The notes under the pieces are model-generated. The model was not told where the DNA came from. It searched no databases and saw only the letters and a list, made by a program, of their open reading frames with translations. From Methanothermobacter marburgensis str. Marburg (GTDB taxonomy: Archaea; Methanobacteriota; Methanobacteria; Methanobacteriales; Methanothermobacteraceae), in the NCBI RefSeq assembly GCF_000145295.1, contig NC_014408.1, forward strand, positions 1,290,001 through 1,322,000: DNA of 32,000 bases, given 5' to 3'. Positions within the stretch are counted from its first letter, which is position 1. Each line of letters starts with the position of its first letter. Shown here in pieces: positions 4,330 through 12,705 of this stretch. The position numbers were made by a program, and so were the translations under genes.

Positions 4330-4725
4330 TTATGATGGTGTTTTAACCGCCTTATCGACCGGAAGGTCTGGGGGTGCCGTTATGATTATTGCCCCCTCCC
4401 TGGGCCTTATTATTATTTCACCCTCATCTATGACCCTGGTGTGGACTGCCACCGCACTGTTCTTTATGTGGCTGGACATGTCAATGCCATTAACCGTTAC
4501 CCGCCTCAGGCCTGCGACAGGTATGAGGTAGTACTCTGATGGCCCGGTGTTTTCACTTATCTGGGGCTTTCCTGATGCCTCACCTGCCCCCCCTGAAAAG
4601 GTGGTTGTCACCACAAGGAAAATCAGTATTGTGAAGAGTATATCGATGAAGGGAACCATGTTGAACCTTGGCCTTCCATGGACCTTGTTCCTGTACCTCT
4701 CTGTATCCAGGACCATTTTTATCAC
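4330..4725 (-). CDS. ExbD/TolR-family biopolymer transport protein
   Basis: 131 aa. Single N-terminal TM with the ExbD-like core [19 protein letters not shown]. Its start overlaps the stop of the upstream ExbB-like gene by 4 nt (ATGA). Confidence 0.75.
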
Positions 4726-5561
4726 TGCCGCAGCTTACTCTCAATGATCTCGGCGCTCTTACCGCACCTTTCGAGTATTATATTGTTTATGCTCTTCTCA
4801 AGCATGCTGGGCTTGAATGCCACCACAAGGTTTGCCTCAGGGTCATCAACCGTCCTCACGCTGACAACACCATCCGATTCCATGAGGGCCTCGACCACAT
4901 CATCAACGTCTCCATCAACCCTTATCCTCATGATGGCGTACCCCCAGTTTGTCATCTTCTTTATGAGTTCAATCTTGTCTATCTCATCGTCTATCCTGCC
5001 TGTTATGTAGGAGTAGAGGGGCATGAGGATTATGGCAACTGCCAGTCCAAGTATTGTGGTTATCAGTGCAACATAGATCCCCTCAGCCATTGCAGCGGGG
5101 TCAGCGTTAACACCTAGGGCCCTGAATGTGTACCATATCCCTATGACGGTCCCTATAAGACCCAGCATTGGGGCGACCTCTATTATTGTCCTCAGCGTCC
5201 CAAGACCCTTTGTCATGTTGCTCATCTCAACAATGAAAACACGCTCCATCGCATCCTCAACCTCTGAACGGTTCCTGTAGCCTATCTTGAGGGCCTCTGA
5301 TATTATCTTTGATACTGGATTCTGGTACTGCCCTATCTCCCTGAGTGCCTCAAGTGCTCCGCCCTTCTCCATGGATTCATTGACCTTACCTATTATCTGG
5401 GGTGTGCTAACACGTGAAATCTTTCTTAGGTAGTGTATCTTCTCAATGGACGTGATAAAACCATAGACACCTGTGATTGCTATTATGTATGTTATTACAC
5501 CGCCGCTGCGGAACATTTCAAGTACTGTGCCAAAGAAGTTGAAAACTGGTTCGAGAAACAT
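4722..5561 (-). CDS. MotA/TolQ/ExbB-family proton channel protein with an extra C-terminal soluble domain
   Basis: 279 aa with three TM segments in ExbB-like spacing (APMLGLIGTVIGI..., EGIYVALITTILGLAVAI). About 85 residues follow the last TM, which canonical ExbB lacks. AGGTGAGG Shine-Dalgarno upstream. Confidence 0.78.
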   Translation of the reverse strand: MFLEPVFNFFGTVLEMFRSGGVITYIIAITGVYGFITSIEKIHYLRKISRVSTPQIIGKVNESMEKGGALEALREIGQYQNPVSKIISEALKIGYRNRSEVEDAMERVFIVEMSNMTKGLGTLRTIIEVAPMLGLIGTVIGIWYTFRALGVNADPAAMAEGIYVALITTILGLAVAIILMPLYSYITGRIDDEIDKIELIKKMTNWGYAIMRIRVDGDVDDVVEALMESDGVVSVRTVDDPEANLVVAFKPSMLEKSINNIILERCGKSAEIIESKLRQ

Positions 5562-6281: not shown

Positions 6282-7355
6282 TTATTTCATTGCCTTGAGC
6301 CTTACCTCAGGTTCAAGTGCCCTTGGTTCTGCAGCAACTATTGCGGCTCCCTTGGCAACCACTGTCATGGGGTCATCTGATATCTCGGCAGGAATGCCAA
6401 CCTCATCCAGTATCCTCTCCCTGAGGCCCCTGAGCTGTGAGGTTCCACCCACAACAACAGTCTTGTTGTAGACCCCTGAGATGAGTTCAGGTGAGAGCCT
6501 TTCAAGTACCGCTGCTATGGAATCCACTATACCCTTTACAACGGGCTCAGCAGCCTCTGCAACCATTTCAGAGTCAATTTCAACCTTTTTAGGTTTGTTT
6601 GTCTCCATGCATTTACCTATAACCACTGTTTTGAGGTTTTCAAGATCCTCCTTACACTTGACCATCCCAACCTCTATCTTTGCCTTCTCTGCCTCATGGA
6701 TGCCTATCTCAACATTGTACTTCTCCTTCACCAGTTCAACAAGGTTGGTGTCAATATCATCCCCGCCGACCCGGATTGTCTCAATGTCGGTTATGCCTCC
6801 AAGGGATATCACGACAATGTCACTGGAACCGGCCCCTATGTCAACAACCATGGTCCCTGACGCCTCTGCTATGGGCAGCCCGGCCCCTATGGCAGCTGCA
6901 AGGCCCTCACTTATAACCAGGACATAATTTGCCCCGGCCTTCCTTCCTATCTCCTCAACGGCATTTCTTTCAACCTCTGAGGCATCCCCTGGTATACCTA
7001 TAACTATCCTGTCAATGGACTCAGAATCTCCTGCCCCCATCTCCATTGCATATACAAGGAGGGCCTCTGCCTGTGCAACGCTCTCAATAACACCCTTCCT
7101 CAGTGGTCTCACAGCGATTATGTCCTCAGGGGTTCTTCCGAGCATCATCTTTGCCTCTTCACCCACTGCAAGGACATATGATGGGTCCTCCTTCTTGACG
7201 GCCACCACAGAGGGAATCTTGTAGATATCAAATTTATCCCCTGCTGGTTTGGCAACCACGGTGTTGAGGGTACCCAGGTCTATTCCGAGTGTATTGGTGA
7301 TTGCACTCTTCCTTTCCGGTTTCTCTTCAGATTTTTTCTTTCCAAATGAAAACAT
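6282..7355 (-). CDS. mreB: MreB-like actin-family cell-shape protein
   Basis: Motifs LGIDLGTLNTVVA, AVGEEAKMMLGRTPEDIIAVRPLRKGVI and VVDIGAGSSD. The ORF track extends it to 7394. The ATG at 7355 (MFSFGKKK) has a GGAGGAG Shine-Dalgarno 4-5 nt upstream and avoids overlapping the upstream gene, so I prefer it. Confidence 0.85.
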   Translation of the reverse strand: MFSFGKKKSEEKPERKSAITNTLGIDLGTLNTVVAKPAGDKFDIYKIPSVVAVKKEDPSYVLAVGEEAKMMLGRTPEDIIAVRPLRKGVIESVAQAEALLVYAMEMGAGDSESIDRIVIGIPGDASEVERNAVEEIGRKAGANYVLVISEGLAAAIGAGLPIAEASGTMVVDIGAGSSDIVVISLGGITDIETIRVGGDDIDTNLVELVKEKYNVEIGIHEAEKAKIEVGMVKCKEDLENLKTVVIGKCMETNKPKKVEIDSEMVAEAAEPVVKGIVDSIAAVLERLSPELISGVYNKTVVVGGTSQLRGLRERILDEVGIPAEISDDPMTVVAKGAAIVAAEPRALEPEVRLKAMK

Positions 7356-7356
7356 G

Positions 7357-7998
7357 CTACTCCTCCTCAAATATGTCTCTAAAGTCAACTGCAAATATGT
7401 TGTTGCGGGATGCTATCTCATTTATCCTCTCAACATCACCTGATTCATGAACAGATATCAGCAGTGTTACCAGGACAACGTCTGTAACCTTGAAGAGGGG
7501 GTCGATTATATTTCTTATAAATCCCGGAAGCCTCTCTGTAAGGTAGACGTCTGTCTCTATAAACCCGCTCGTTCTGTCCTCAAGGATGAAGGAAAAACCT
7601 ATTTTATTCTTTTCAGCCTCCCCTGCAAACCTTTTCATATAGTTCTCAGGGGCGACAAGAAGCACAAGGTTGGGTTCGTTCTCAACGTAATATGGGGCTA
7701 TCTTTATATAGGCCCCTCCCTTTTCCTTGCAGATAAGTGAAAGATCTCTTATTTTGTTGCTTTCGCCATAAAGCATTATTAAATCAAAGCGTTTTCTTAA
7801 AAAGGAATCCTTGATGGTAACGTGTTCCCTGAAGAGTATCTTTACAAGATCCCTTGAGGTGATTGCCTCGTAGGCCACAGAGTTGACCATTTCCTCATTA
7901 CCCGCAATCACACACCACAGCCTGTCTGAACTCTGGGCTGTTGAAACCTGTGCTGCCTTTCTGAGAACCTTTATCTTACTCTCTATCATCACCATCAC
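7357..7998 (-). CDS. Hypothetical cytoplasmic protein, translationally coupled to mreB
   Basis: 213-aa ORF with no TM segment and no family motif I recognise. Its stop (7357-7359) is 1 nt from the mreB ATG. Start uncertain (a GTG/ATG cluster at 7987-7998). Confidence 0.6.
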   Translation of the reverse strand: MMVMIESKIKVLRKAAQVSTAQSSDRLWCVIAGNEEMVNSVAYEAITSRDLVKILFREHVTIKDSFLRKRFDLIMLYGESNKIRDLSLICKEKGGAYIKIAPYYVENEPNLVLLVAPENYMKRFAGEAEKNKIGFSFILEDRTSGFIETDVYLTERLPGFIRNIIDPLFKVTDVVLVTLLISVHESGDVERINEIASRNNIFAVDFRDIFEEE

Positions 7999-8251: not shown

Positions 8252-8941
8252 GTGAATTGTGTGTTTGTTAAGGGCGTTGCAAAAAGAGCCAGTTTTCTCA
8301 TAAGTGTGGCCACCATCCCATTTCTCCTAGGCTACCACGCGGTCAGTATACTCATGTTCAGCCTCATAGCATTCATGATGCAGTTCTTCAGGGACCCTGA
8401 AAGAAATATTCCCTCTGAAGATAATATCATCGTTGCCCCCGCAGATGGTAGGCGTTTATCCGGCAAGATAGACCGTATAAAAAGGGTAGGGTCCGATTAT
8501 CCCCTCATTGACAGGATATTTCCCAATGGTGGTGAGGCTATTCTCATAAGCACCTTCATGTCACCATTTGATGTCCACGTAAACCGGGCCCCTGTTTCGG
8601 GAAGGGTGATATACACAGAGCATACTGACGGTAAATTCAGGGTTGCACGTTCACGTGTCCTCACCGAAAATGAAAGGAACCTGATCGTGATAGAAACAGA
8701 GCATGGCAATGTTGGTGTGGTGCAGATAGCAGGGTTCATTGCACGGAGGATCGTTCAGTACGTCAATGAGGGAGACTATGTTGAGCGGGGGAGCCGTATA
8801 GGTATGATAAGGTTCGGCTCAAGGGTCGACCTCATACTGCCAGAAAACTGTGAGGTGCTTGTGAAGACCGGTTCAAGGTCTGTTGCCGGGGAGACTGTTG
8901 TAGCAAGGTTCGTAAAGCCTAAATCAGACCGCAAAAATTAA
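8252..8941 (+). CDS. psd: Archaetidylserine (phosphatidylserine) decarboxylase proenzyme
   Basis: 229 aa. Motifs FFRDPERN, APADGR, FMSPFDVHVNRAP and the self-cleavage-type FGSRVD. GTG start immediately after an in-frame TAG. Confidence 0.85.
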   Translation: MNCVFVKGVAKRASFLISVATIPFLLGYHAVSILMFSLIAFMMQFFRDPERNIPSEDNIIVAPADGRRLSGKIDRIKRVGSDYPLIDRIFPNGGEAILISTFMSPFDVHVNRAPVSGRVIYTEHTDGKFRVARSRVLTENERNLIVIETEHGNVGVVQIAGFIARRIVQYVNEGDYVERGSRIGMIRFGSRVDLILPENCEVLVKTGSRSVAGETVVARFVKPKSDRKN

Positions 8942-8982
8942 TTAGTCAGACACAACCATATACAACTCTGCAGGTGGCGCTG

Positions 8983-9666
8983 ATGAATGACAAAAAAATA
9001 ACATCCTTCATATCATTACCTGATGTTTTATCGATTTTAAATGCTTCTTCAGGCTATTTTTCCATTTTAATGTCCATTCAAGGGTATTTTAGTGCTGCAT
9101 CTATTCTGATGCTTCTGGCTGTCGTTTTCGATTCACTTGATGGGTGGGTTGCACGCCGAACTGGTAGAGTTGATATTCATGGATTTGGCAAAAACATGGA
9201 CTCCCTTTCAGATGTAATCTCATTTGGTGTTGCTCCAGCCATTTTTATCTACCTAACAAGTGCCCATTTTCGATATATTAATATATTAGTAGGTCTCTTA
9301 ATAGTAATATGTGGCATACTGAGACTCTCAAGGTTCAATGTTCTCACAGGGGGTGGGAAGAACTTCACGGGACTTCCAATACCCGTGGTGGCGGTTGTTG
9401 TATCATCATTTTATCTCACAGGATTCTACAGTGAGAAGGTTGTGGGGGCAATGCTGCTCGCTGTCGGTATCCTCATGGTCAGTAGCATTGAATACCCTCG
9501 TGTGGGGGGTAAAATGGCATCTATTGCTTTCATACTCATAACAGCAGCAATTGTAACAGGCATAACTGGAATTCTCACTGTTCCCACAGCAATCATACTT
9601 TTTATGGCCACTGTGGCATACATTGCAGTGCCTATAACACCAATGAGACGTGATCTGAATGCTTGA
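8983..9666 (+). CDS. pssA: CDP-alcohol phosphatidyltransferase; archaetidylserine synthase
   Basis: Motif DSLDGWVAR-x10-GKNMDSLSD matches D-x2-DG-x2-AR...G-x3-D-x3-D. Multi-TM protein. The ORF track starts at GTG 8974. The ATG at 8983 is preceded by AGGTGG with 5-nt spacing. Confidence 0.88.
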   Translation: MNDKKITSFISLPDVLSILNASSGYFSILMSIQGYFSAASILMLLAVVFDSLDGWVARRTGRVDIHGFGKNMDSLSDVISFGVAPAIFIYLTSAHFRYINILVGLLIVICGILRLSRFNVLTGGGKNFTGLPIPVVAVVVSSFYLTGFYSEKVVGAMLLAVGILMVSSIEYPRVGGKMASIAFILITAAIVTGITGILTVPTAIILFMATVAYIAVPITPMRRDLNA

Positions 9667-10969
9667 TAAGATTAAAGGTAATGAAAAGGGGAATAAGAAT
9701 AATCCTCCTGATCTCCGGAAAAACAACAGAAAAGGTGACTCGAAAATTGGAGACAAACTCAAGGGACTTGTGGGTAAATTCGGTGGCGGTGAGGGCTCGG
9801 ATAAGAAAAAACCCAGGCCCATGCCAAAACCCCGGCCCCGGCTGAAAACCCCTGAAGAGCCAAAGGCCAGAAAAGCCCCTGAAAAACCTCTCAGGGGTGG
9901 TGAACAGCCTAAGCCCAGACTTACACCACCACCCAAACGACCTGGAGGCCCATCAGGAGGTATAGGTCGGAAAATTCCAGATGAGGACCAGAAAACCCTC
10001 GTTGGTGCCCTTGTCTTTGGTGTTATTCTAATGGTCCTTGCTGGTGCAGGCTACTACTTCTTAGTCTACCAGCCATACCAGGAGGTGCTGCAGAACGCCA
10101 AGGCCACAAAGATCGCTGAGGTGGACGCACTCTTCAAGGGCCCCCTTGCAACCGACCCCCAGAAGCAGGCCATACTTGCACAGATAGATGCCGCTGTTAC
10201 ACCCGAGGAGGCCCTGGCGGTTGATGTTGTGGGTCCCGCAACACAGTCATGGCGTACCTATCAGAACCAGCAAATAAATATAAAAAAGGACCGTGTTGGC
10301 AGGGTCATGGTTAATTACACAGATAACGACCAGCAGAAGCGTGTGATAATGAAGGTTGCTGATGCAAAGAAATTTGTGAGCCAGGCCGATGCAACCGTGC
10401 TTGCAAATACACAGATCCAGACCCCTGATACCGTTGCTGTGCCAATAATGATCACGAGACTGCAGGCGGCAGGCGGCCTTATAAGTGTGGGTAACATGGT
10501 CGACGTCTACCTCAACCAGAACGCCACCGAGAACAATACATCAGCTGCAGCATCAACACCAAGAATAAGCGGGGCTACTGTACTTGCAATTCTTAGATCC
10601 AAGGACAGCGGTACAGTGGACGCGCGCATACTAAACACTCAGCGGTTAACACTAAACACAATAACCTCACAGAGCGAAAATGAAAGAACATCATCAACAG
10701 ATGTGGAGCAGCTCCTGCGGGCGGCTGCCTCAGGTGGTCTGAATGAAGCCGAGATCAATGCTATACTCCAGAACTACGGTATAAGGCTGTCCAACTATGA
10801 GAGGTCATCAAATCTGGGAGAGCTTGATGCCAACTACCTCATAATACTCGAGGTCCCAAGGGAGGATGTCCTCTTCCTGATACAGAACATGAACAGCATC
10901 GTTCTGACTGTGCCAACACAGAACGCCCCTGACTGGATGATCAGGGAGCTTCAGAGCATATACGGCTGA
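9659..10969 (+). CDS. Bitopic membrane protein: K/P/R/G-rich disordered N-terminus, one TM, large external domain with weak CpaB/RcpC-like features
   Basis: 436 aa. Residues 1-110 are low complexity (KKPRPMPKPRPRLKTPEEPKARKAPEKP). TM at about residues 113-137. The start overlaps the pssA stop by 8 nt. Confidence 0.7.
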   Translation: MLDKIKGNEKGNKNNPPDLRKNNRKGDSKIGDKLKGLVGKFGGGEGSDKKKPRPMPKPRPRLKTPEEPKARKAPEKPLRGGEQPKPRLTPPPKRPGGPSGGIGRKIPDEDQKTLVGALVFGVILMVLAGAGYYFLVYQPYQEVLQNAKATKIAEVDALFKGPLATDPQKQAILAQIDAAVTPEEALAVDVVGPATQSWRTYQNQQINIKKDRVGRVMVNYTDNDQQKRVIMKVADAKKFVSQADATVLANTQIQTPDTVAVPIMITRLQAAGGLISVGNMVDVYLNQNATENNTSAAASTPRISGATVLAILRSKDSGTVDARILNTQRLTLNTITSQSENERTSSTDVEQLLRAAASGGLNEAEINAILQNYGIRLSNYERSSNLGELDANYLIILEVPREDVLFLIQNMNSIVLTVPTQNAPDWMIRELQSIYG

Positions 10970-11022
10970 CTAAGCCAAAAAATTTATTAAATTTTTATTT
11001 AATATTCTAGGTGGGGATGTTT

Positions 11023-11949
11023 ATGAAAAAATGGGTGTATGTTGTTATAGCTGCTGTGTTCATGCTTTCCATTCTGGGAGTCTCTGATACAGGGTCAGCT
11101 GCCAAGGAGACATGGGTTTCTGAAAAACCATCTGCAACCAGTTTCAGGTTGAAGGACCTGACCGCTGTTATAACCGTAAAGATAAAGAACAATGACAACA
11201 ACGTCCAGTACTTCAAGATAGGGCAGGTATACCAGGGAAGCCTTTCAGAGAACAGTACAATTAAATGGCTCATCCAGTGGACGAATCCAGCGGCGGTTAA
11301 AATGGTCAAGTCAAGGACGCCTGAACTGGGGGGTGACTACGGCTGGAAGGTGAAACCTGGGGAGACAAAAACAGTGTCATTTGGCCTCAGGGCCACGGGG
11401 GATATGGGTGAGATACCCAGTTACATCGTTAATGTTGAGTCAGATAACAGCAATTACTGGCCACTTATAAATGAGCCTGGCCTCATGTCCTCATGGTTCA
11501 TGCCCAATGAGATAGAGGTCCTAAACCCATCACTGGATCTCAGATACTGGAAGGGGACCTTTGGGTTCACTCTGATCAACATCGATGAAGAGAAGGTTTC
11601 AGGTATCGTGAGGGCCCCCATTGCCCCTGCAAACTCAAAACTAGTGTACAGTTCACCCAAGGCATTTGTGGATGATGACCTCTTTGTGAGCACACAGGTT
11701 GCTGCATGGGATGTCACAATGGACCCGGAGACCTCACAGAGGTTCGTATACACCTACGAATGGCCCGCTAAGGTAAGCGGAGGTAACGGTTCAACCAGTG
11801 GTGGAGGCTATTACCCGCCAGGCACTCTTCAGGGGACAACCGGTTCATCATCTGTTCCAGGTGCTAAGACAGGTGCCCCCTACGGTCCACTGGTGATAGG
11901 TGTGCTTGTGACTGCAGCCGCAGTTGCCTACACAAAGATCATACGTTAA
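11023..11949 (+). CDS. Secreted surface protein with a C-terminal sortase-type sorting signal
   Basis: Signal peptide MKKWVYVVIAAVFMLSILGVSDTGSAA. G/S/T-rich linker. C-terminus SSVPGAKTG-APYGPLVIGVLVTAAAVAY-TKIIR. The ORF track starts at GTG 11011. The ATG at 11023 has better spacing to AGGTGGGG. Confidence 0.75.
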   Translation: MKKWVYVVIAAVFMLSILGVSDTGSAAKETWVSEKPSATSFRLKDLTAVITVKIKNNDNNVQYFKIGQVYQGSLSENSTIKWLIQWTNPAAVKMVKSRTPELGGDYGWKVKPGETKTVSFGLRATGDMGEIPSYIVNVESDNSNYWPLINEPGLMSSWFMPNEIEVLNPSLDLRYWKGTFGFTLINIDEEKVSGIVRAPIAPANSKLVYSSPKAFVDDDLFVSTQVAAWDVTMDPETSQRFVYTYEWPAKVSGGNGSTSGGGYYPPGTLQGTTGSSSVPGAKTGAPYGPLVIGVLVTAAAVAYTKIIR

Positions 11950-11970: not shown

Positions 11971-12705
11971 ATGGGGACATTCATGAGGCTGGCAACTTTT
12001 CTGATAATTGCAGGCATGTTCATAGTGTCGCTCTACGCCCTTCTTGAGGTGAGTTTCTATTCCTCACAGGTAATTGTTCAGAACCCTGACATCAGGGCTC
12101 CGGTCATTGAGATACCATCCATTAACCTTGAGGAGACCATCAACAACCGATCCGTTTTCTATGGAGTCTACCATGAACCCATGTCCTACCTCCCTGGTAA
12201 CAGAACCGTCATACTCTTCGGACACAGGACACTCTACGGCTCACCCTTCCTGAACCTTGATAAGTTGAAGCCGGGGGATGAGGTCAACCTTAACTGGCCA
12301 GGGGTTGGCCTTGCGACTTACAGGGTTAATCGATCATTCATCGTGCCAGCATCCTACCAGATATCCGTGAATCAGGGGGCGAGGCTATTTCTCATCACAT
12401 GCCACCCCCTTGGATCAACAAGGGAGAGACTGATAGTTGAGTGTAAACTTGAAGGCATAAAGCCCTACCAGAGAAACCTCAAGGTTGAGAACCCCAAGAG
12501 GTACTATGCGCTACTCATAATACTCGGATTCCTTGGGGCTGGTCTTCTGATCACCAGACTCTATCCTGTTTATGAAGATAGGAGACTTCTCCTTGCAGCG
12601 GTAATCAGCCTCACACTCTTCCTGCTGCTGGGTTACATCTTCCCGATCCCCCCAGAGTTCATATCAGAGAAACTCATTGAATTCAACAGCATATTTGGAC
12701 TTTAG
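11971..12705 (+). CDS. Sortase-family cysteine transpeptidase
   Basis: 244 aa with an N-terminal TM anchor. Sortase core: IEIPSINLEE..., PGNRTVILFGHR (His85), LFLITCHP (Cys144, codon 12400-12402) and STRERLIV (Arg151/153). Two further TM segments at the C-terminus. Confidence 0.82.
   Translation: MGTFMRLATFLIIAGMFIVSLYALLEVSFYSSQVIVQNPDIRAPVIEIPSINLEETINNRSVFYGVYHEPMSYLPGNRTVILFGHRTLYGSPFLNLDKLKPGDEVNLNWPGVGLATYRVNRSFIVPASYQISVNQGARLFLITCHPLGSTRERLIVECKLEGIKPYQRNLKVENPKRYYALLIILGFLGAGLLITRLYPVYEDRRLLLAAVISLTLFLLLGYIFPIPPEFISEKLIEFNSIFGL

Follow-up and report, generated by a model that had tools for sequence, protein, structure and literature searches.

A candidate substrate with a conserved VPxxxTG tail for an atypical sortase of pseudomurein-walled archaea

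The window analyzed here is a 32,000-nucleotide stretch of the genome of Methanothermobacter marburgensis str. Marburg (NC_014408.1, positions 1,290,001 to 1,322,000, forward strand), an archaeon with a pseudomurein wall; all coordinates below are those of the window unless a locus is named. On its + strand, a gene that we call X encodes a secreted protein with a C-terminus made up of a conserved motif ending in Thr-Gly, a hydrophobic helix and a basic tail, and the next gene encodes a sortase with a His/Cys/Arg catalytic triad. We propose, with a probability of roughly 60%, that X is a Sec-exported surface protein, that the adjacent sortase cuts its T-G bond by means of Cys144, and that the Thr is passed to an amine of the cell envelope, the likeliest acceptor being pseudomurein or a lipid-linked precursor. 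A pseudomurein acceptor is favored because the sortase and a neighboring DUF515 protein are reported to be restricted to archaea that possess pseudomurein.

The C-terminal end of X reads ...WPAKVSGGNGSTSGGGYYPPGTLQGTTGSSSVPGAKTGAPYGPLVIGVLVTAAAVAYTKIIR up to the stop codon (...VSGGNGSTSGGGYYPPGTLQGTTGSSSVPGAKTGAPYGPLVIGVLVTAAAVAYTKIIR). Four elements follow one another in this region of the + strand: a disordered G/S/T-rich linker (11773..11853), the conserved sorting motif VPGAKTG-APYGP (11854..11889), a hydrophobic membrane segment, APYGPLVIGVLVTAAAVAY (11875..11931), and the basic tail TKIIR (11932..11946). At the codon level, V occupies 11854-56, P 11857-59, GAKTG 11860-11874 and the stop 11947-49. 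A sequence-only reading of this DNA had listed the same elements in the same order, and both its residues and its coordinates for GAKTG proved to be correct. The peptide spanning the motif is SSSVPGAKTGAPYG in this window and SVPTKETGVPYG in its Methanobacterium form. In the AlphaFold model of X, the linker (residues 251-286) has a predicted local distance difference test score (pLDDT) below 50, and the orthologues differ freely in its length and sequence. The hydrophobic segment forms a helix (residues 288-307), near the end of which Tyr303 is at least 90% conserved.

We examined the conservation of this region in 158 distinct orthologue tails, which combine the pooled homologue set with loci found by using the sortase as a seed. 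Positions were numbered from the invariant Gly (+1), with the G(+1) and P(+3) columns serving as anchors. Position -6 (V in the window) is V in 121, I in 19 and L in 6 tails (146/158), position -5 is P in 142/158, and position -4, which is G here, is T in 112 and S in 28 (T/S in 140/158) and G in 8. Position -3 (here A) is occupied by K in 70 tails, S in 21, Q in 19, R in 18, P in 12 and A in 10, and position -2 (here K) by E in 56, N in 28, T in 24 and other residues in the rest. Immediately before the Gly, T is found in 150/158 tails. On the other side, position +2 (here A) is V, L, A or I in 149/158, position +3 is the anchoring P, position +4 (here Y) is Y in 112, F in 29 and W in 8 (149/158), and position +5 (here G) is G in 131 and A in 19. 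Two to three basic residues lie within the last six in 154/158 tails, where the family pattern is [KR]xx[KR]. When 48 full-length proteins were aligned with MAFFT without anchoring, the Gly of TG proved invariant, and its Thr and the next Pro were at least 90% conserved; the same G is present in every intact orthologue of X.

Judged from the sequences, the conservation of this motif beside a freely varying linker is a pattern beyond chance, and the predicted family signal is [V/I]P[T/S]xxTG[V/L/A]P[Y/F]G (with its last position, [VI]P[TS]xxTG[VLA]P[YF]G[LP]), then the helix, then [K/R]xx[K/R]. The tail counts and the alignment thus bear out the conserved tripartite C-terminal signal supposed by the sequence-only reading. 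Loss of the motif with retention of the membrane tail is not the pattern of this family, TG being essentially invariant. Within VPGAKTG, the conserved residues are V, P, T and G, and the variable ones are G(-4) and A(-3). The earlier suggestion that GAKTG is closest to LAxTG fails because G and A stand at the positions that the family conserves least, that of the "L" being mostly T or S and that of its "A" seldom Ala in the counts above, and because the conserved V-P lies two residues further out. By analogy with LPXTG, in which cleavage falls between T and G, the proposed scissile bond is that of T-G at 11869-11874 (+). We also considered the first Thr of VPT as the scissile residue, as in QVPTGV, which is cut after its Thr. 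This candidate was rejected, since several lineages, the one in this window among them, have G, N or S at position -4, and T(-1)G(+1) is nearly invariant.

An N-x-S/T glycosylation sequon occurs no more than 12 residues upstream of VP in 89/152 distinct tails (e.g., NATTVPT and NASVPT), typically 3-5 residues ahead of the V of VPT; Methanobacterium is among the genera with such sites just 5' of the motif. The density of sequons in the globular part of X is about 1 per 100 residues, and the X protein of the window has none near VP.

The tail of X is recognized by no curated sorting-signal model. The LPXTG_anchor model (TIGR01167) matched 3/52 tails at E≤10, with a best E value of 0.051, and did not match X itself at E≤0.1; Gram_pos_anchor (PF00746) matched 0/52 orthologue tails. 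The model for the QVPTGV signal of sortase B (TIGR03065) matched 3/52 tails at E≤10 without reaching significance (best E 0.45), and the GVDTG-CTERM model matched 1/52 at the same threshold (E 0.021). The PGF-, PEF- and VPXXXP-CTERM models matched neither X nor any of the 52 tails, even at E≤10, in agreement with the sequence-only view that this is not a signal of the PGF-CTERM (archaeosortase) type. The accompanying description of the tail as a Gram-positive cell-wall signal is not supported, the host being an archaeon with pseudomurein.

The open reading frame (ORF) of X spans 11011..11949 on the + strand and begins with GTG, which gives the length of 312 amino acids (aa) stated earlier. The true start is probably the ATG at 11023 (MKKWVY..., 308 aa; gene X, putative sortase substrate, 11023..11949). 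This start is favored because a GGTG at 11010-13 lies 9 nt 5' of it and because the nearest database relative, a hypothetical protein of Methanothermobacter sp. K4 with 98% identity, is 308 aa long. The earlier view of the protein as secreted agrees with its N-terminus, which has the layout of a signal peptide, with KK, a hydrophobic core, and then GSA followed by A. The predicted Sec signal peptide, MKKWVYVVIAAVFMLSILGVSDTGSA, with A as the first residue after its putative cleavage site, was read from the sequence (11023..11100, +), and residues 2-18 form a helix in the model. The 41-bp spacer 5' of X (window 10970-11022) is very AT-rich (TTTATTAAATTTTTATTTAATATT) and precedes the GGTG. These two features resemble an archaeal TATA-type promoter and a ribosome-binding site, and X may have a strong promoter of its own inside the block. 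A scan for promoters and terminators was uninformative, with counts at the level of shuffled sequence in this archaeal host.

The AlphaFold model of X (overall pLDDT 81.7) shows a globular part (11110..11772, +; residues 30-250, mostly with pLDDT above 90) consisting of two beta-sandwich domains, followed by the disordered linker and the terminal helix. Between the domains, the alignment of 48 proteins revealed a highly conserved aromatic-rich stretch, YWPLI.EPGL..SWF.PNE...LNP.LD...W.G.F, with invariant W, P and G columns. We found 144 homologues of X, all of about 300 aa, and those that are named come nearly all from Methanobacteriaceae. No Pfam or NCBIfam family is assigned to X, which was searched at E≤0.1, or to its 144 homologues, and no solved structural relative was found by Foldseek (best E 7.7e-3, TM-score at most 0.2) or by PDB sequence profile.

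The sortase gene begins 21 bp downstream of X (11971..12705, +; probable start ATG 11983, 240 aa), and its identification is based on Pfam, the structural model and the orthologues. The protein matches PF04203 with 64.3 bits against a cut-off of 26.6 (E 1.2e-17). We located the catalytic residues and checked their codons: His85 in FGHRT at 12223-25, Cys144 in LITC at 12400-02, and Arg153 at 12427-29. All three are invariant throughout two orthologue sets, of 13 and 51 members. The AlphaFold model (pLDDT 82.6) comprises an N-terminal transmembrane (TM) helix, a barrel at residues 30-170, membrane helices at 175-194 and 198-220, and a terminal helix. Foldseek returned 108 PDB matches at E≤1e-3 for this model; every one of the 50 listed is a sortase, and classes A, C, D, E and F all lie near 1e-9. 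A more distant sortase match, P0226, was set aside, as it lies in an unrelated setting with amine oxidase neighbors. The C-terminal third of the protein (12490-12705) holds the two extra TM helices, a conserved YPV.ED(K/R) loop and an FPIPP motif. To our knowledge, no characterized sortase class has this arrangement.

The sequence-only reading had likened the motif to the one used by class E sortases, and some databases label this enzyme class E. We reject that label because sequence and fold searches do not separate the classes: NCBIfam, the PDB profile search and Foldseek all fail to distinguish among classes A, C, D, E and F. The NCBIfam scores were 35.8 bits for class E (NF033747) against a cut-off of 160, which is about the same as the 34.1 against 160 for class C, 30.4 against 140 for class D, and 31.5 against 39.35 for TIGR01076. 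None of the class models that matched (classes E, C, D and GN) reached its cut-off, and class B was not among the matches. In the PDB sequence profile search, class C came first (8t28, E 6.7e-10), with classes D and E close behind. The protein is a genuine sortase and a member of no curated class.

The first place of class C in this search bears on a reading in which X would be a pilin-like subunit polymerized head-to-tail by a class C-like sortase, and the DUF515/CpaB protein would assist in the assembly. Class C sortases carry C-terminal membrane helices, as this sortase does. In addition, there is one enzyme for one substrate, X has conserved lysines in the alignment (K55, K65 in YFK, and K116), and PMC11915815 places the DUF515/CpaB and sortase genes under "pilus assembly/surface proteins". 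We nevertheless consider this reading extremely unlikely. X matches no pilin or Cna-type domain among solved structures, and the cluster is without minor-pilin genes. The sortase contains no lid-like segment over the active site, the stretch between its TM helix and its barrel being only about 15 residues, and its score with the class C model is 34 against 160.

A genome scan seeded with the sortase yielded 80 species-level Methanobacteriaceae loci. The ORF ending just 5' of the sortase bears the signal, and X abuts the three-TM sortase in about 70 loci. The order psd-pssA-DUF515-X-sortase-DHNA (dihydroneopterin aldolase) was held almost everywhere the contig allows a view. The same adjacency was seen for a more distant X (P0242) and in a metagenome-assembled genome labeled Methanobrevibacter (L012). 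The earlier statement that the gene of X lies directly 5' of a sortase gene, therefore, applies to many species, with the PF04203 match above its cut-off. The sortase gene of Methanothermus fervidus is surrounded by glycosyltransferase genes, and neither X nor DUF515 is found within 7 kb of it; an X homologue with the motif TVPTKETGAP... and the end TVPTKETGAPLAPLLLG...AKFFRP is encoded elsewhere in the genome. M. fervidus thus holds the sortase and a tailed X apart, which indicates that the enzyme and the signal co-occur even when they are unlinked.

We ran a tail profile of 33 positions against 1.84 billion representative proteins at E≤1e-3 and obtained 23 matches, all but four of which were X or X fragments. 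The sensitivity of this search is limited, as a short profile needs about 37 bits in a library of that size. P0244 and P0247 were rejected as tail carriers, both being repeat-driven false positives. P0236 is a 118-aa secreted repeat protein that is unrelated to X and has the same tail, SVPVQNTGVPYGLF..., and P0248 is a 351-aa Methanobacterium protein (WP_319373424.1, L089:6001-7056), likewise unrelated to X, with the tail TIPMQTTGAPIGLL...; its gene is not near any sortase. Both are candidate additional substrates in some Methanobacterium lineages. With matches almost only to the X family, plus the two unrelated carriers, the tail looks like a portable signal with mostly one target, in what looks like a largely one-enzyme, one-target system. 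This distribution fits the "dedicated system" pattern described by Haft, in which a signal is used by one target.

In the mechanism that we propose, the hydrophobic helix and the basic end would keep X in the membrane after export, and the VPxxxTG-xP(Y/F)G stretch would thereby be presented to the extracellular barrel of the sortase. The extra membrane helices of the enzyme may read the conserved helix of X. The conserved residues in and at both ends of that helix, together with the extra helices of the sortase, suggest that recognition may take place within the membrane. Cys144, helped by His85 and Arg153, would then cut the T-G bond and form a thioester with the Thr; an envelope amine would resolve the thioester, leaving X covalently fixed and without its helix.

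Several observations weigh against this proposal. The gene order is conserved well past functional units, the DHNA and kor genes being equally syntenic, and this whole-region synteny makes adjacency a weaker argument. Moreover, X is absent, interrupted or decayed in 6/80 loci. It is cleanly absent between DUF515 and the sortase in two (L013 and L015), is replaced by a 542-aa insertion-sequence-like ORF on the opposite strand in L031, and is broken into fragments, with TG changed to IG, in L078; L046 has no ORF between DUF515 and the sortase, and L053 has a 93-aa remnant of X that keeps only the tail. In all six, the sortase retains the Cys motif, and it retains the His and Arg motifs too where the pattern test could score them. 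In a seventh locus, a separate find in a relative with 27% GC (L083; sortase 40% identical), DUF515 is followed directly by the sortase without X. The sortase is thus intact where X has been lost, which means that it must serve another function or act on other targets. The motif of X also differs from every characterized sortase signal, with its Pro four residues before the Thr and not two, so that recognition by this sortase is an extrapolation. Cleavage and attachment of X by the sortase are steps that we infer. Finally, a second sortase in the same genomes, Srt2, could be the real enzyme for X.

The same facts can be read in favor of a plain membrane anchor that is never cleaved. In that case, TG-xP(Y/F)G would cap the helix, take part in glycosylation or packing, or contact DUF515, and the adjacency of the sortase would be coincidental. 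Synteny across the region takes in unrelated genes, the sortase persists where X is lost, and the motif fits no known sortase signal model; furthermore, conserved Pro and Gly residues at the membrane interface are common in ordinary anchors. This explanation is, in our judgment, unlikely. An invariant T-G at a fixed distance from a helix and a basic end is the exact layout of a sortase signal, and the same tail is found on the unrelated P0236 and P0248, as expected for a portable signal. The tail was also kept in the 93-aa remnant of L053, and neither sortase in these genomes has another known substrate.

Srt2 is a paralogue of 192-206 aa with a single TM helix and a barrel about 38% identical (L086:12912-13490, L087:6001-6588 and L088:6001-6621). 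It is conserved in Methanothermus, Methanothermobacter and Methanobacterium and always comes after a gene for a metallo-beta-lactamase-fold protein and an MscS channel gene. No secreted neighbor was seen in the surroundings of Srt2, where the adjacent 303-aa protein is cytoplasmic and tail-less. If the signal were real and processed by Srt2 or another peptidase, the three-TM sortase and DUF515 would together serve some other target. The presence of Srt2 in the same genomes is consistent with such a division of labor, as are the location of X in M. fervidus, where Srt2 is 5 kb away and the three-TM sortase much more distant, and the adjacency of DUF515 and the sortase, which is more constant than that of X and the sortase. 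However, X abuts the three-TM sortase in the great majority of loci, the Lactamase_B and MscS surroundings of Srt2 have no link to X in Methanothermobacter or Methanobacterium, and the 5-kb gap in M. fervidus is filled by unrelated genes on both strands. We therefore regard processing of X by Srt2 or another peptidase as very unlikely.

The gene order in the window is RNase HII, an MreB-like gene and a gene without a Pfam match on the - strand, and psd, pssA, DUF515, X, the sortase, DHNA and the kor genes on the + strand. The genes psd, of the phosphatidylserine-decarboxylase family (8252-8941; Pfam PS_Dcarbxylase, E 1.8e-49), and pssA, for archaetidylserine synthase (8974-9666; NCBIfam arch_ser_synth, 268 bits against a cut-off of 240), belong to aminolipid synthesis, and pssA overlaps the start of DUF515 by 8 nt. 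These two genes may provide an acceptor in the form of an amine lipid, or they may be mere neighbors. The acceptor could accordingly be a lipid: the sortase would move the C-terminal Thr of X onto the amine of archaetidylethanolamine (or archaetidylserine), and X would become lipid-anchored, as proposed for the unrelated ArtA. In this form, which we think improbable, a true bacterial-type sortase would act as a lipid-anchoring enzyme, and the DUF515/CpaB protein and the two extra helices would hold the substrate and the lipid together.

Resolution of a sortase thioester by an amine nucleophile is established chemistry, and the genes for psd, pssA, DUF515, X and the sortase are tightly packed in a single co-directional block that is kept in nearly all Methanobacteriaceae loci. 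In addition, the artA-pssA-pssD synteny of Methanosarcina prompted work in Haloferax, in which both ArtA-dependent cleavage and lipidation proved to require PssA and PssD (PMC7157517). On the other hand, psd and pssA are housekeeping aminolipid genes, MTH_1027 being a characterized archaetidylserine synthase, and the pssA of the window fits the general model NF038087 and reaches only 92.9 bits with the sorting-associated model NF038086 (cut-off 200). L083 has DUF515-sortase-DHNA without an upstream pssA, the sortase of M. fervidus lies among glycosyltransferase genes, and synteny is equally strong for DHNA and the kor genes, so that the linkage may reflect gene order only. Attachment of X to a lipid thus appears doubtful to us, and we retain pseudomurein or a lipid-linked precursor as the likeliest acceptor.

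DUF515 and the sortase form the most constant pair of the region; they adjoin each other in nearly all loci, also in those without X. The DUF515 protein (9659..10969, +; DUF515 86 bits) contains an RcpC/CpaB (SAF-like) domain (RcpC 32.8 bits against a cut-off of 28.8) and one TM helix after a K/P/G-rich N-terminus. We regard this CpaB-like membrane protein as a probable partner of the sortase. In 44 distinct orthologues, its C-terminus (10900-10966) ends in L[T/V]VPTQxAPxWMxxEL, which reads LTVPTQNAPDWMIRELQSIYG here and is like the X signal TVPTQxTGxPYG minus the TG. The resemblance may be due to chance, or this end may be a pseudo-substrate or a docking element for the sortase.

The MreB-like gene (6282-7394, -; Pfam MreB_Mbl, E 4e-104) is divergent from the cluster and is accompanied by a 213-aa gene without a Pfam match (7357-7998, -), which by position is the coiled-coil partner of MreB in the published "cluster C" discussed below; the position of this pair is conserved across loci. 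A few kb away, near the MreB-like gene, the - strand also carries a pair consisting of a MotA/TolQ/ExbB-family gene (4722-5561) and an ExbD/TolR-like gene (4330-4725).

We know of no established mechanism for covalent attachment of proteins to pseudomurein. Kaster (2011) and Leahy (2010) counted two sortases in Methanothermobacter, and the latter study (PMC2812497) reported 2 sortases and 0 LPxTG proteins in M. thermautotrophicus; a non-canonical substrate was therefore to be expected. Reviews of archaeal surface biogenesis treat archaeosortases and not substrates of true sortases. A literature search, with subscription journals mostly outside its reach, found no paper naming MTH1028-1030, and the pairing of X with the sortase appears to be undescribed in the literature searched. 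What would be new is a predicted archaeal sorting system of the sortase type that pairs an atypical three-TM enzyme with a largely dedicated target bearing a heptapeptide signal, VPxxxTG, and the chemistry of which we infer. X is the first plausible target for a long-orphaned archaeal sortase and makes the enzyme directly testable, and the pairing bears on how, or whether, proteins become covalently fixed to pseudomurein. An amine-lipid acceptor would mean that the same anchoring chemistry was reached by two unrelated families of enzymes. The host organism grows at about 65 °C, and a sortase from it that recognizes a sequence other than LPXTG would be a candidate heat-stable and orthogonal tool for protein ligation.

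The locus itself has been described from another angle. "Cluster C" of the pseudomurein-specific genes in PMC11915815 (mSystems 2025) is the same locus, with orthologous groups for the MreB-like, coiled-coil, RcpC/CpaB and "Sortase E" proteins. The accessible text of that article leaves the cluster out of consideration as pilus or surface related and not connected with wall synthesis, and makes no mention of X or of a sorting signal.

Among archaeal systems, the closest comparison is with archaeosortase A and PGF-CTERM proteins (Haloferax and Methanosarcina). Both have a tripartite C-terminal signal, a Pro-aromatic-Gly element where the helix begins, and linkage to pssA/psd, as in the artA-pssA-pssD arrangement of Methanosarcina. 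The enzyme here, in contrast, is a true sortase (PF04203) and not a homologue of the exosortases and archaeosortases, and attachment to a lipid is here a conjecture.

In comparison with the bacterial LPXTG/sortase A system (Gram-positive; TIGR01167/PF00746), X has the same overall plan, with a signal peptide at the N-terminus and, at the other end, a T-G-terminated motif followed by a hydrophobic helix and basic residues, and its partner has the sortase fold and the His/Cys/Arg triad. The heptapeptide motif of X, VPxxxTG, however, places the Pro at -5 relative to the Gly, where LPXTG has it at -3, and is followed by a conserved xP(Y/F)G; the basic tail is only 4 residues long, and there is essentially one target as opposed to many. 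Because the host is an archaeon with pseudomurein, lipid II or peptidoglycan cannot be the acceptor. The class E/LAxTG system of Actinobacteria (NF033747; PDB 5CUW, 5GO5 and 9IOK) resembles the present one in that the local GAKTG has Ala at its second position. Class E sortases are housekeeping enzymes with many substrates, whereas the sortase next to X has two extra C-terminal TM helices and looks dedicated.

Dedicated pairs, such as the SrtB type with NPQTN or the QVPTGV system (TIGR03065), are like the system described here in having one enzyme, an adjacent target and a private motif that is not LPXTG. QVPTGV shares V-P-T...G-V with SVPTxxTGV; in the motif of X, three residues are inserted between VPT and G, and the host is archaeal.

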